Part shown: piece by piece, positions 15,769-27,000 of the stretch
Layout: the number at the start of each line of letters is the position of its first letter
Position numbering within the stretch: position 1 is the stretch's first letter
Origin: a virus
Reading direction: 5' to 3' (one strand)
Length of the DNA: 64,000 bases
IMG/VR virus record: IMGVR_UViG_3300037010_002844
Coordinates: 1 to 64,000 of that record
Program-made: the position numbers and the translations under genes
Notes under the pieces: model-generated
Seen by the model: the letters and a program-made list of their open reading frames with translations, nothing else
Told to the model about the DNA's origin: nothing
The model's database searches: none

Positions 15769-16269
15769 GTGTATGATGATACCATGACCGAAATCGGTAC
15801 ACTGATCACTGATCTACCCAACTGGCGCGAGTCTATGGCAGTTAAACTCAGCGACTTCGGTCTGGCTGAAGGCGACCTTGTGACTGTCGAGGGCCATGGC
15901 CTGAACTCAGGAGGTAACATCTATCGCATCTTGAAGGACAGCCCACCTCGCAGCGATGCTCGCTGGGGTCAGTACACCGACTATTCTCCGCGATGGTCGC
16001 GGAAATCCCGAAAAGAGAAGCGCCGCGATGGTTGGGTCGATGCCAAAGGCTATCTCATCAACCCGACGCGGCTCAGGGGTTGTATTGAGGTCATGCCGGT
16101 CTTTTCCTTCATGGCCTATCCGACGGGCGCCAAGGCCGGGCGCAAGTTGATCTCCTACAGCAAGATCAAGCGACAGGTCAAGAAGATCGACTTGATGGCG
16201 ATGGCCACGCAGTTCGCATCATTCCAGCTCTTCATCAACCAAGAGTTGAGGAGGTTGCAGGGCGAATGA
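15769..16269 (+). CDS. paralog-family protein A1 (166 aa)
   Basis: Clearly paralogous to 17688..18176 (LSDFGLAEGDLVTVEG...GNIYRIL versus IVDFGLNVGDIVTFAS...GCIYQIV). The C-terminal halves also align. Confidence 0.5.
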   Translation: MYDDTMTEIGTLITDLPNWRESMAVKLSDFGLAEGDLVTVEGHGLNSGGNIYRILKDSPPRSDARWGQYTDYSPRWSRKSRKEKRRDGWVDAKGYLINPTRLRGCIEVMPVFSFMAYPTGAKAGRKLISYSKIKRQVKKIDLMAMATQFASFQLFINQELRRLQGE

Positions 16270-16526
16270 GGAGAGATGAGTCGCAGGGAAATACAGAGAA
16301 AGTACCCGCCCGGGACCATGATGACCTACTGGTGCCTTCGTCGCCAGGCTCAAGTCATCGTGTTGTTGATCGGCTGGTATTCGACTGCGCCCGGCTACAA
16401 TCGAAACGGACAACTGCATAAGCCCAGGCGGTGGCAGGCCTTGGTTCTCGACAATAATTCGTTGGAGGACTGGGAATTGTCGACCGTCGAGGAGACGCCC
16501 ACGCTGGATGATTACGAGGGACGACC

Positions 16527-16862
16527 ATGTTGACAAATGAACTTTGGACTAACCTGACGCTCGTCATCCGCGATGGCAAAGCGTTTGACAGCACACAGTG
16601 CAGGTGCGACTTTAGCAAACAGTTCATGCCACGTCCCGGTGACATGGTCAAGGGGCTGCTGCAGACTGGCGGTGGCGAAGGTCTGATCATCTCTGTTGAG
16701 ACGTATTCAAAGTTCGTCACAGTCCTGTGGAGCAAGTGTCCAATCAGGCCTCAGGTCCAAGTAACGTCGACCCAGATCCAGGCTCAAACACGTAAACTCA
16801 AGGTTCGGTGGTCGCCCGAGCTGGCACAGGACATCAAGGCCCATCACGAGATTGACGCTTAG
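16527..16862 (+). CDS. small SH3/KOW-like family protein
   Basis: RPGDMVKGLLQTGGGEGLIISVE motif. Confidence 0.4.
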   Translation: MLTNELWTNLTLVIRDGKAFDSTQCRCDFSKQFMPRPGDMVKGLLQTGGGEGLIISVETYSKFVTVLWSKCPIRPQVQVTSTQIQAQTRKLKVRWSPELAQDIKAHHEIDA

Positions 16863-17037
16863 CGTAATTTCCTGATGATGGAAACGAGGAGATCGCTCAC
16901 GATTTCCCCAATGTCAGTGACATCTCGGTCACGATCGACCGCGATCTCGAGTCTCAGATCGAGATCGTCAGGTACCGTGAGGACGACTCAGGCAGGTTCT
17001 GGATGTACGAAGATCCCTGGCGAAGGAAGACCTTCCA

Positions 17038-17328
17038 ATGATCAGCGAATTTCTCCTTGATGACCTGGAACTCCGCGAGCCCTTTGCCTCGCAGCGCTCC
17101 GAGCTGACCATTCGTTATCCCGGCGACGTGGTCAGGCACAAGAACGACATCAAGTCCAACGGCATGGTCGTCGCCATCAAGGGAAACGCCGCCTCGGTCC
17201 TGTGGACGGTCGATCCAGATCGTTCACGGATGAAGGTGGAAAAGATGATCCAGATGATGTTAAAGGACGTCGCTGACGGCATTGATGCAGAAATCTTGCG
17301 GGACTTGATGATTGCGAACAAGTCATGA
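17038..17328 (+). CDS. small SH3/KOW-like family protein
   Basis: YPGDVVRHKNDIKSNGMVVAIKGNAASVLWT. Paralogous to 17325..17684. Confidence 0.45.
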   Translation: MISEFLLDDLELREPFASQRSELTIRYPGDVVRHKNDIKSNGMVVAIKGNAASVLWTVDPDRSRMKVEKMIQMMLKDVADGIDAEILRDLMIANKS

Positions 17329-17684
17329 TCAGCGACCTTCCAATCAGCGAACTCTGGCCTGCCGACCGGCCGCCCGAGCGTTCATCAAAGAAGTTTCTGG
17401 GTTACAAGTGGGCCACGCCCGGGACGCTGGTGATTCGTCGTGATGTTGAAGGTTGGTTCGGCATCATCATCGCCAACGACAAGAAGCGGGCCTCTGTCCT
17501 GTGGACGAAGTACGTCAAGGAAAACGACTTCTCTTCGATGGTGTCCCCCATCATTCGACAGACATTTCAGCCATCGTTGATCAAGAAGCTCGTTTCCGTT
17601 CAACCGATGTCGCAGCCAAGTGACCTCGTCTTCTACCTCGACTACAAGTACGGTGCAAACTCAGGCTCTTCCGGGTTACCATGA
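17325..17684 (+). CDS. small SH3/KOW-like family protein
   Basis: TPGTLVIRRDVEGWFGIIIANDKKRASVLWT. ATGA coupling. Confidence 0.45.
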   Translation: MISDLPISELWPADRPPERSSKKFLGYKWATPGTLVIRRDVEGWFGIIIANDKKRASVLWTKYVKENDFSSMVSPIIRQTFQPSLIKKLVSVQPMSQPSDLVFYLDYKYGANSGSSGLP

Positions 17685-17687
17685 ACC

Positions 17688-18176
17688 ATGCAGCCTAACA
17701 CGCGTAGGAGCATTGTGGACTTCGGACTGAACGTCGGTGACATCGTTACGTTTGCGTCTGAGAACGATAACACCGGTGGGTGTATCTATCAGATCGTCTT
17801 CGACCAGACGCCCATAGCGCCGCACACCACGCGGCGCACGACCACACGAACTCGAACAAAGTTCAACTGGCGGGACAATAGCAAATCTCAAGAAACTGAG
17901 ACGTACGAACACGTCGAACACGGCAGGTGGGACGAACAAGGTCGCAAGATCAAGCCTTGCGACGTCGCCGGCTACGTTCGTATCAAGCCGCTGTTCACCT
18001 TCTATCCGACGCCTCGAGGCAAGAAGCCCAAGGGAGCGGGTGAGACCATCATGGTCTACTACGGCCATGGTGTTTCACAGTTGAAGAAGGTCGAGGTTGC
18101 TGACCTGGGTGCCAAATACGTGGAACTGGGCGAACTGATGAAGTTCCTGCTCCGTAAGGGAGGCGCCGAACTGTGA
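17688..18176 (+). CDS. paralog-family protein A2 (162 aa)
   Basis: Paralog of 15769..16269. Confidence 0.5.
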   Translation: MQPNTRRSIVDFGLNVGDIVTFASENDNTGGCIYQIVFDQTPIAPHTTRRTTTRTRTKFNWRDNSKSQETETYEHVEHGRWDEQGRKIKPCDVAGYVRIKPLFTFYPTPRGKKPKGAGETIMVYYGHGVSQLKKVEVADLGAKYVELGELMKFLLRKGGAEL

Positions 18177-25606: not shown

Positions 25607-25815
25607 TGCCTGACGAGTGGCTGCAGCGCCTGACCCCGGGCACATTATTGGCGAGGCCTTCCGGCGAGGTGGTGATGGTGATCACTTGCGAGGTGCAAAC
25701 GCTGCCCATCGGCTGGATTCAGCTCAACTTCACCACGATTGGACCCTCGGGCCTGCTGCGAAACAGCGTCGAAGCCAACACATTCGATAGAACGTGGAAA
25801 ACCTTGACCTCATGA
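25603..25815 (+). CDS. small SH3/KOW-like family protein
   Basis: LTPGTLLARPSGEVVMVITCEV. ATGA coupling. Confidence 0.4.
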   Translation: MMPDEWLQRLTPGTLLARPSGEVVMVITCEVQTLPIGWIQLNFTTIGPSGLLRNSVEANTFDRTWKTLTS

Positions 25816-26063
25816 GGCAGCTGATCCCGCGCCCGGGTGACATGGTCATCGCTCGCAAAACGATGGCGGCGTGGTTCTCTGACAGCGAGCGTCGTCCCGT
25901 TGGGATCCAGGTCGATCCAGGTGATGTCTGTCTGGTCGTCCAATCGTGGATGGTAGGTGCCAACGTGCGGCTCAGATTGATCGCCAGGGGGACCATGTCG
26001 ATGTTTTCCTGTCGGCTGGAACACGTGCGGCTCAATTGGACGGTTGTTCAAAATGCTGAATGA
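25794..26063 (+). CDS. small SH3/KOW-like family protein
   Basis: PRPGDMVIARK...PGDVCLVVQ, a tandem double motif. Confidence 0.4.
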   Translation: MENLDLMRQLIPRPGDMVIARKTMAAWFSDSERRPVGIQVDPGDVCLVVQSWMVGANVRLRLIARGTMSMFSCRLEHVRLNWTVVQNAE

Positions 26064-26080
26064 AGTTGGCTACTTAAAGT

Positions 26081-26350
26081 GTGTCCACCCCTCCAATTCG
26101 TCCAGGTGACCTCGTCACATTCACGTTCTGGTCCTCGTACTTGGCGCCCTCAGCGGCGCCGACCGAGCTGGGCCTCATCAACTGGTATGAACTGCACCCC
26201 GGCGACGCTGGCCTGGTCGTCTCGGTCGGGAGCGACGTTTCTGCGTCTAACACTCACGATAACACAGTCACCGTGATGTTCTCAAGGGTCAACAAGCTGC
26301 TGCGGGTTCACTTGAACCAACTGACCAGGGCCAATGACTCCACCAGGTGA
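26081..26350 (+). CDS. small SH3/KOW-like family protein
   Basis: IRPGDLVTFTF...HPGDAGLVVSVG. Confidence 0.4.
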   Translation: MSTPPIRPGDLVTFTFWSSYLAPSAAPTELGLINWYELHPGDAGLVVSVGSDVSASNTHDNTVTVMFSRVNKLLRVHLNQLTRANDSTR

Positions 26351-26370
26351 TTGTCTCGAATAATCCTGAG

Positions 26371-26616
26371 TCACTCTATGGACTCCAAATCCAAGGCAGC
26401 GATCCACCAGAGTGACCCTTCTAACAGGACCAATGATAGTTGTTCGCCGAGTTCATTGCAGCGATAGTGGTGAGCGATGAGCAGGCCGATCCCCTCGTGC
26501 CACATCTCGCAGTAGCCTCCCAGCTGTTCGATCAAGACTTGGCCTTTGGTCGCGACCAAATCACCAGGCAGGAGCGTCTGAGACATGACTGAGCTCGGAT
26601 GAAAAAAGTGGTCCAC
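26371..26616 (-). CDS. small SH3/KOW-like family protein
   Basis: LLPGDLVATKGQVLIEQ. Confidence 0.35.
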   Translation of the reverse strand: MDHFFHPSSVMSQTLLPGDLVATKGQVLIEQLGGYCEMWHEGIGLLIAHHYRCNELGEQLSLVLLEGSLWWIAALDLESIE

Positions 26617-26791
26617 TAATGCCGCTGCACGTCAAGACGTAGTAAACCCACGGGTAGCGGTCAGACCGTGCTGATCCCGCTGCCAGTGGGTCTCGGTTCG
26701 CCTTGGTGGCGCAGATGACCAGACCGAACTTGGGGCGCCCCGCGAACGGATCACAGATGACCAATTCGCCGATCAGGTGGCGAGGTGCCAT
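26561..26791 (-). CDS. small SH3/KOW-like family protein
   Basis: LIGELVICDPFAGRPKFGLVICAT. Confidence 0.35.
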   Translation of the reverse strand: MAPRHLIGELVICDPFAGRPKFGLVICATKANRDPLAAGSARSDRYPWVYYVLTCSGISGPLFSSELSHVSDAPAW

Positions 26792-27000
26792 CGACCCTCC
26801 ACCTGCTTAGCGTTGTGATCATTGACGACGAGGAGCGCATCGGCAAGGTGGACCTTGAAACCGACGCGATCATCCTCGTGCCACATCACAAGCCACTCGC
26901 CTTCCCTGATTTGACCGATAACCAGACCGAACTGTTGAGCGTCAACGCCCCAGCGTATCCTACGCACCACTAGCTCGCCCGATTGCAGGCCGCTACCCAC
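26773..27000 (-). CDS. small SH3/KOW-like family protein
   Basis: LQSGELVVRRIRWGVDAQQFGLVIGQI. Confidence 0.35.
   Translation of the reverse strand: MGSGLQSGELVVRRIRWGVDAQQFGLVIGQIREGEWLVMWHEDDRVGFKVHLADALLVVNDHNAKQVEGRWHLAT

Follow-up and report, generated by a model that had tools for sequence, protein, structure and literature searches.

Small barrel proteins carrying segments of a T4-type major capsid protein in an uncultivated virus genome

The Gol region spans 29 residues within the first quarter of gp23, the major capsid protein (MCP) of phage T4, and is the most conserved part of that protein; it binds domains II and III of EF-Tu, inhibits the GTPase activity of that factor and permits cleavage by Lit (PMC3014915). 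Here, we describe small genes in a stretch of viral DNA of 64,000 nucleotides (positions 1 to 64,000 of IMG/VR record IMGVR_UViG_3300037010_002844; hereafter the window). Three of these genes encode proteins, termed family A, that each join a small barrel domain to a short tail matching one segment, or block, of a T4-type MCP.

The tails are true homologues of the T4 gp23-type MCP, with 45–57% identity to the MCPs of Microcystis phage Mel-JY01 and Flavobacterium phage immuto, the two queries used in tblastn searches. Unlike the MCP itself, family A proteins hold 25–55 residues on an unrelated barrel, and no protein or array contains a complete HK97 fold. The tail type called block 1 covers the same MCP region as Gol, the one capsid-derived peptide known to act alone; Gol, however, lies inside full-length gp23, whereas block 1 appears to be a separate module on a carrier, beside modules for other regions. 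T4-like phages also contain genes in pieces, namely split nrdA, split DNA polymerase and gene 39/60. The window resembles these in presenting an essential T4-type gene as several small adjacent open reading frames (ORFs), but the known pieces are collinear and together make up the entire protein, whereas here most of the protein is missing, the order is permuted and each piece carries an extra domain. The retroviral capsid-derived dominant-negative factors Fv1 and enJS56A1 are virus-related proteins that interfere with the recognition or assembly of structural proteins; unlike family A proteins, they are encoded by host genes. DSAD1, which acts against DSR2, is likewise a virus-related protein that interferes with recognition of a structural protein, but it is not a fragment of the sensed protein (PMC11087589). 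Finally, the family A barrel differs from known SH3-like, KOW and Tudor barrels in being completed by the protein's own N-terminal strand and in having no sequence match to them.

Family A: a barrel joined to a capsid-protein segment

Family A proteins consist of a barrel of ~60 amino acids (aa), a short linker and one 25–55-aa segment of a T4 gp23-type MCP, and different paralogues carry different segments. The three genes of the window are:

16527..16862, plus strand: A gene 1, 111 aa; barrel at ~aa 1–75 (16527–16751), tail at 16752–16859 matching MCP block 2
17038..17328, plus strand: A gene 2, 96 aa; barrel at ~aa 1–62, tail assigned to MCP block 3, the rest of the spine helix
17325..17684, plus strand: A gene 3, 119 aa, ATGA-coupled to gene 2; barrel at aa 1–66, tail at ~17526–17666 matching MCP block 1

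The tail of the first gene, ‘TRKLKVRWSPELAQDIKAHHEIDA’, corresponds to the return strand of the E-loop and the start of the spine helix. The protein matches Pfam PF07068 (Gp23) with E 2.1e-8 and 34.4 bits (aa 76–111 to profile positions 135–170) and PHROG 138 with E 1.5e-7, and its tail is 53% identical to aa 296–331 of the Mel-JY01 MCP (tblastn). The tail of the third gene, ‘IIRQTFQPSLIKKLVSVQPMSQPSDLVFYLDYKYG’, corresponds to the Gol region and first strand of the E-loop, and the protein matches PF07068 (E 4.5e-7, 30.0 bits) and PHROG 138 (E 3e-5); here identity to the Mel-JY01 MCP is 57% over aa 79–113 (tblastn). Both proteins exceed the PF07068 gathering score of 24.4 bits, with matches spanning 36 and 45 residues of the 376-position profile. 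The tail of the second gene is ‘KMIQMMLKDVADGIDAEILRDLMIANKS’; five aligned block-3 tails compared with an MCP alignment gave an hhalign P of 7e-4, at Mel-JY01 aa 334–356, directly after block 2. A single-sequence AlphaFold2 (AF2) model of this protein has four strands followed by a long helix, at a mean confidence (pLDDT) of only 48. None of the family A proteins has the complete HK97-type fold (N-arm, E-loop, spine helix, P and A domains, ~400–540 aa), and tblastn with the two real MCPs detected no other MCP part in the window, including the C-terminal half.

The invariant tail residues are R, QPM, P, F, Y, D, Y and G, the ones common to distant real MCPs, that of T4 included. An assembly or frameshift artefact is ruled out for the window genes, as three independent samples gave identical sequence.

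The barrel includes a conserved N-terminal strand (MSxLKTY-like in most relatives) and a core with the consensus ‘PGDxVxH..D..S.G(I/V)(I/V)VA.....VTVLWS..P’. In an AF2 model of 17325 built on a 48-sequence alignment, strands are predicted at residues 2–6, 10–12, 35–38, 44–52 and 55–62 with pLDDT 94–96; as modelled, and for family A only, the barrel is a five-stranded SH3-like small barrel. No covering family was found in Pfam, PHROG, NCBIfam or PADLOC, no sequence match in the PDB and no significant match among predicted viral structures. Three other origins were considered and rejected. Derivation of the barrel from the MCP or its propeptide finds no support in an HMM (hidden Markov model) of six MCP N-terminal regions, which gave no match, or in hhalign of barrel against MCP (P 0.41); tblastn alignments of MCPs did run through the barrel. 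Introns or inteins splitting one MCP gene are at odds with a barrel conserved at the protein level with a strand pattern, with the lack of junction motifs and with pieces that are not collinear; the junction consists of ‘VLW(S/T)xxP’ and a variable linker, and the A proteins have neither an HN motif nor a C-terminal intein half. The N-terminus also resembles the capsid-targeting sequence of T4 internal proteins, ‘MKTYQEFIAE’, but a leader of that type, which is separate from the folded domain and removed by cleavage, is rejected since the conserved residues 2–6 form a barrel strand at pLDDT 95.

The array recurs in five related metagenomic loci (L008, L009, L015, L016 and L019; GC 46–57%), with barrels 25–47% identical to those of the window. 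Orthologues of 16527 are L015 7717–8115 and the protein P0020; those of 17038 are L008 10345–10617, L009 5060–5341 and L015 8112–8375; and those of 17325 are L008 11227–11556, L009 5338–5658, L016 2556–2900 and L019 5438–5761. The order of MCP blocks along each locus is:

Window: 2-3-1
L015: 2-3-1
L008: (unassigned)-3-5-(short tail)-1
L019: 5-1
L009: 3-1
L016: 1

In all six loci the next identified gene after the block-1 A gene belongs to a second family of small proteins, family B (across a gap of ~1.2 kb in L015). Block-1 tails of orthologues are 46–53% identical, as against 25–47% for the barrel, and the tails are as conserved as the barrel or more so; they nevertheless evolve faster than real MCPs, with tail–tail identity of 50% vs 78% between real MCPs. 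The two-part architecture and the array structure are recurrent and conserved, and the tails are restricted to MCP segments as far as they can be detected.

Wider sampling of the family came from a barrel-only profile (47 positions) searched against 1.84 billion representative proteins, which returned 50 proteins at E<=1e-3. Of these, three are the window's own or near-identical proteins and two are false positives of repetitive sequence, which leaves 45 further small proteins; with the false positives set aside, all hits are 63–175 aa long with the domain near the N-terminus. A three-sequence MCP HMM matched the tails of ~27 of the ~55 members analysed, in only three regions of the model (76–125, 277–324 and 468–527). 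Since the tails played no part in the search, their MCP matches independently confirm the architecture. Relatives also carry the C-terminal strands of the MCP (block 5), and others have spine-helix-like tails. One protein, P0010, contains two units in a single chain, A-block2-A-block5, each with its own MCP block. Ten members without a significant MCP-HMM tail match showed no other PHROG family; the tails of three of them were classed by eye as spine-helix or ‘YRYNPLS’. Searches of 50,697 GenBank phage records by megablast and tblastn yielded only real MCP genes or nothing, with barrel and family B both absent, and no relatives were found in IMG/VR scans or GTDB genomes.

Block 1 also occurs outside family A. 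A block-1 tail profile found 45 small proteins with a Gp23 Pfam domain, some of which are frameshift-broken MCP genes in error-prone assemblies. One caution for counting small Gp23 ORFs is L012 3600–6400, a polished error-prone long-read contig on which a T4-type MCP is split into several such ORFs, most likely by frameshift error. Other block-1 proteins are genuine stand-alone mini-ORFs, made of a basic leader and block 1 and ending ‘YGSGS’; that of P0066, from a phage contig of 296 kb, has genes for a GIY-YIG endonuclease and the terminase as neighbours and is far from any MCP. Block-1 mini-ORFs were also seen in unrelated AT-rich huge or large phages (L013/L014 10001–10201 and L004 9935–10345), with no barrel and no MCP nearby; GIY-YIG homing endonuclease genes adjoin the mini-ORF in L013/L014 and lie ~5 kb away in L004.

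A strain 99.75% identical to the window, L007, has 17 of its 23 differences in a 134-bp patch (17234–17367) covering the spine-helix tail of 17038 and the first part of 17325, and five more inside a 23-bp stretch (20872–20894) of a 781-aa gene. The differences in the patch are mostly transitions, lie at all four bases and amount to 9 non-synonymous and 6 synonymous codon changes. Both clusters look like short recombination tracts; a diversity-generating or gene-conversion cassette was rejected because changes occur at all four bases and run into the non-MCP start of the next gene.

Proposed function and alternative explanations

We favour the reading that family A proteins are capsid-segment mimics that partner a T4-type MCP or each other, at a probability of roughly 0.45. 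The barrel would act as a soluble carrier and each tail would mimic one core element of the HK97-type capsid fold, pairing with another tail or, in a T4-type MCP that is unfolded or in the course of assembly, with the strand or helix complementary to it. The outcome could be to chaperone and time the folding or assembly of the phage's own MCP, or to poison capsid assembly of competing T4-type phages, and the choice depends on whether the phage's own MCP is gp23-like. A capsid protein would be the likeliest partner because the tails keep exactly the residues packed inside the HK97-type fold; with these fold-internal residues, a co-expressed set of mutually packing elements and the chaperonin and translation neighbours described below also favour mimicry. 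Action as a set is consistent with the ATGA and GTGA coupling of the genes and with the two-unit fusion in P0010. More tentatively, the proteins may form a modular set, either a scaffolded pseudo-capsid subunit or modules that insert into folding MCPs, serving as a folding helper or as a weapon against competitors or immunity.

Several points weigh against mimicry. The genome's own MCP was found neither in the window nor in ~9 kb upstream, and poisoning would be self-harming if that MCP is gp23-like. The assignment of block 3 depends on a modest P of 7e-4, and the tail of 17325 is unstructured in its AF2 model (pLDDT 54–64). About half of the family tails have no MCP assignment; the recurrent tail ‘YRYNPLSxDEDIYIP’ has no significant MCP match (P 0.28), and its likeness by eye to MCP aa 503–515 or 467–480 was rejected as not significant. 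The mapping of blocks to elements of the HK97 fold, and of block 1 to the T4 Gol residues, follows the gp23 sequence and structure as we take them to be. For block 1, moreover, EF-Tu is an experimentally known alternative partner (PMC3014915).

If the mimicry is real, this would be the first bacterial virus that deploys translated capsid-protein fragments as functional modules, and the proteins would form a previously undescribed class built from structural-protein fragments. Literature searching found no description of such proteins, and we know of no phage example of capsid-segment mimics. Mimicking tails would give a handle on the folding of the chaperonin-dependent T4-type capsid protein and would bear on the strong conservation of the Gol region, which has lacked an explanation since the EF-Tu/Lit work; or else they would represent a new mode of phage–phage or phage–host conflict through structural mimicry. 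In practical terms, peptides on a small soluble carrier could serve as inhibitors or probes of capsid assembly. For annotation, small huge-phage ORFs with a Gp23 Pfam match are not necessarily broken capsid genes.

The same tails could instead be decoys that occupy host readers of MCP segments, such as EF-Tu, Lit-type proteases and capsid-sensing receptors, and so blunt immunity or redirect translation; this is a specific form of the anti-defence role suggested in the initial annotation, and we consider it rather unlikely. Block 1, which presumably aligns to ~aa 95–132 of T4 gp23, appears from its alignment to be homologous to the EF-Tu-binding Gol region, is the commonest tail and occurs in the stand-alone mini-ORFs of unrelated huge phages. 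The A genes stand amid small accessory genes, next to that for initiation factor IF-1, and not in a recognisable structural module. There is also a precedent in the phage protein DSAD1, which competes with a structural protein for the immune sensor DSR2 (PMC11087589). Set against a decoy role is the finding that the T4 Gol peptide alone activates Lit, such that a plain mimic would trigger abortive infection. The conserved tail residues, too, would be concerned with packing inside the fold and not with surface epitopes, blocks 2, 3 and 5 have no known non-capsid partner, and PADLOC, a library of defence and not anti-defence genes, gave no match for ten members at E<=0.1.

Two further explanations start from a whole MCP gene. 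That the array is a relic, an extra MCP copy broken by insertions of small mobile barrel genes, with functionless tails and selection on the barrel only, appears improbable. It would explain why the window and L015 both place blocks 2 and 3, contiguous in the MCP, side by side in unchanged order, why blocks 3 and 5 keep MCP order in L008, why barrel-less MCP fragments lie near GIY-YIG genes in L013 (adjacent) and L004 (~5 kb), and why tails evolve faster than real MCPs. Yet in relatives with barrels of only 25–47% identity the tails still read in frame and can be recognised; they match or exceed the barrel in conservation and keep the MCP-invariant residues. Tail types are shared by dozens of genomes, and in no locus does block 1 follow MCP order. 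It is harder still to credit that a working MCP is encoded in fragments and put together again, held in place by the barrels. An intact MCP was not seen in the 64 kb, several core elements are represented among the pieces, the genes show translational coupling, and essential genes are split in T4-like phages (nrdA of Aeh1, and DNA polymerase). However, none of the arrays examined contains the core of the MCP A domain (~aa 362–467) or the insertion domain, the pieces depart from collinear order, the subset of blocks varies from one relative to another, the tails diverge much faster than real MCPs, and the window is a fraction of a 0.2–1 Mb genome.

Family B, the second array and the single-family proposal

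The initial annotation placed these genes in one expanded, rapidly diversifying SH3/KOW-like family of ~20 members defined by an N-terminal PGD motif, with a role in anti-defence or host takeover, a reading that we regard as unlikely. Its 17 named ORFs are all present at their positions, and most are called by the collection's gene finder (10513 is not). The motif exceeds its chance frequency, with 7 copies of PGD.[VILM] counted among the called genes vs 0.8 +/- 0.9 in residue-shuffled proteins; a double motif, claimed for some members, is seen directly in 25794 and 26081, and coupling of the ATGA type is borne out by start/stop overlaps at 17325 (ATGA), 18173 (GTGA) and 25603/25606. Weak profile–profile similarity is also in excess, with hhalign P<0.01 in 26% of candidate pairs vs 1.3% of pairs involving control small proteins, a comparison that is partly circular because candidates were picked by motif. 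The best long alignments are those of family A with 26773 (P 1.3e-4, 34 columns) and of 26773 with 26371 (P 9e-5). The SH3-like fold of family A and the many other small PGD genes in relatives (listed below) point the same way.

Most of the proposed members nonetheless lack a significant sequence link. Pairwise phmmer rose above its reversed-sequence control only for 15769 with 17688 (E 1e-11) and for 18173 with 14532–14993 (E 2e-4). Leave-one-out HMMs group 16527, 17038 and 17325, the left-out member ranking 1st, 1st and 2nd of 1133 six-frame segments, and a 48-sequence profile of the family A domain has no significant match in the window other than these three (E 1e-11 to 1e-17, with 1e-11 for 16527 and 9e-17 for 17038). 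Significant links thus exist only within A (three members) and within B (three to four members), to which the claim of paralogues in arrays now applies, and not to a single family of ~20. The predicted small-barrel fold likewise stands for the core of family A, the only member modelled with confidence being 17325, whereas its KOW identity does not, the Pfam KOW model giving no match at E<=1 for ten members. The IF-1 homologue at 23547–23879 also carries ‘LPGDRV’, showing that the PGD motif is generic to the first strand of small barrels. Rapid diversification is contradicted by the stable retention of the same paralogues, tails and order in relatives of 46–57% GC. ORFs 464, 1276, 8401 and 10513 have no support beyond the motif, and the MCP-derived C-terminal ends of the core members had gone unmentioned.

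The interval from the vault-protein gene to the A array contains more small genes with N-terminal PGD motifs, in L019 (3002–5055), L008 (8579–9985) and the window (14990–15589), with examples such as ‘VKPGDVVG’, ‘AEPGDVIH’, ‘LIPGDSIV’ and ‘LNPGDLVW’. Small barrel-like proteins seem to be generally abundant in this region of the clade.

Family B and two ORFs with weaker similarity to it are:

15769..16269, plus strand: long B paralogue, 166 aa (gene-finder start 15784), upstream of the A genes
17688..18176, plus strand: long B paralogue, 162 aa (gene-finder start 17715), directly after the block-1 A gene
18173..18448, plus strand: short B form, 91 aa, GTGA-coupled to 17688 and without the basic central insert
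14532..14993, plus strand: distant B candidate, 153 aa, similar in its C-terminal half only; not in the initial annotation
40412..40699, minus strand: outlying small ORF, 95 aa, with marginal N-terminal similarity to B

A B HMM of 11 sequences, whose reversed control gave no matches, matches 15769 with E 7e-56, 17688 with E 7e-59 and 18173 with E 2e-24; the short form is further linked to the long ones by hhalign (P 1.5e-11 over 86 columns). Orthologues are L015 6637–7140 for 15769, L008 11586–12068 for 17688 (E 2e-41) and L009 5694–6017 for 18173 (E 2e-19). The ORF at 14532–14993 is probably a distant member, with a B HMM E of 0.009 and hhalign P of 3.5e-4 to 4.6e-4 over 61–63 columns in addition to its phmmer match with 18173; for 40412 the sole support is a B HMM E of 0.042. 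Family B has no match in Pfam, PHROG, NCBIfam, PADLOC or the PDB. Its constant position after block 1 raised the idea that it might be the MCP insertion domain, which was rejected for lack of similarity (P 0.27).

The second array comprises six small genes:

25603–25815, plus strand: small gene
25794–26063, plus strand: small gene
26081–26350, plus strand: small gene
26371–26616, minus strand: small gene
26561–26791, minus strand: small gene
26773–27000, minus strand: small gene

The two groups had been described as head-to-head; they are in fact convergent, with 3′ ends facing. L008 and L009 hold orthologues of 25603, 25794, 26561 and 26773 (E 1e-20 to 4e-8), each orthologue group keeping an N-terminal PG(D/E/T)LV motif, and no orthologues of 26081 or 26371 were found in the related loci. 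The proteins lack MCP tails. They resemble family A only weakly (hhalign P 1e-4 to 1e-2); the match of A with 26081 reaches P 3e-5 over 19 columns only, and the family A HMM is not significant on the array (E 0.027 for 26081, 0.32 for 25794). On these comparisons, they are distinct small PG(D/E/T)-L-V proteins, at best remote relatives of A.

Genome context and neighbouring genes

The window has a GC content of ~57%, and its genes are small, often overlapping and of phage-type functions, including an endolysin, an exonuclease, a NUDIX hydrolase, an ADP-ribosylglycohydrolase, a thymidine kinase, a tRNA nucleotidyltransferase, two HslV-like peptidases and AAA ATPases. An uncultivated huge phage is treated as its source because the sequence is also present on metagenomic contigs of 0.2–1 Mb, has no nucleotide match among the 50,697 GenBank phage records and encodes a vault protein whose relatives are in huge-phage records. 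The ~9 kb beyond one side of the window consists of small unannotated genes. The neighbours referred to here are:

11150–13729, plus strand: homologue of the eukaryotic major vault protein, 859 aa, with MVP shoulder, Vault repeats and SPFH
16276–16533, plus strand: 85-aa ORF between B gene 15769 and A gene 16527, containing ‘YPPGTMM...VIVLLIGW’
18438–18752, minus strand: conserved 104-aa gene directly after the B genes (E 1e-29 to L008, 5e-28 to L009)
23547–23879, minus strand: bacterial-type IF-1 homologue with an N-terminal basic extension, kept in L008 and L009
27402–29009, minus strand: phage-encoded GroEL with ~49% identity to its bacterial counterparts; its synteny with the arrays holds in L008 and L009

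Relatives of the vault protein among GenBank phages are confined to LR756500.1, LR756501.1 and LR756503.1 (40–42% identity), uncultured huge phages of 462–735 kb. In the Mahaphage-type records LR756500.1 and LR756501.1, no A domain or MCP piece lies within ~17–20 kb on either side of the vault gene. The vault-protein gene is upstream of the arrays in the window and in L008, and L019 starts with a probable C-terminal fragment of it. Synteny of vault protein, array, methionine aminopeptidase (in relatives), IF-1 and GroEL is partly kept in four of the six loci (window, L008, L009 and L019). The presence of GroEL and IF-1, joined in the same neighbourhood of relatives by a methionine aminopeptidase gene, suggests a setting of protein synthesis and folding. 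No co-chaperonin was noticed beside the phage GroEL.

The 3′ end of the conserved 104-aa gene (18438–18752) overlaps the end of ORF 18173 by 11 bases. The 85-aa ORF at 16276–16533, absent from the initial annotation, is called by the gene finder in some copies of the sequence (L003 and L002). The two HslV-family peptidase paralogues lie side by side at 62038–62583 and 62587–63192, both on the minus strand. A shared leader, ‘M(R/K)I(K/T)hx(D/E)LRxxIR(E)’, starts the otherwise different ORFs 22300 (plus strand), 23976 (minus) and 18752 (minus), of 289, 92 and 104 aa, and a fourth copy opens ORF 17859 (minus) of L008; it may be a common N-terminal targeting or interaction peptide.

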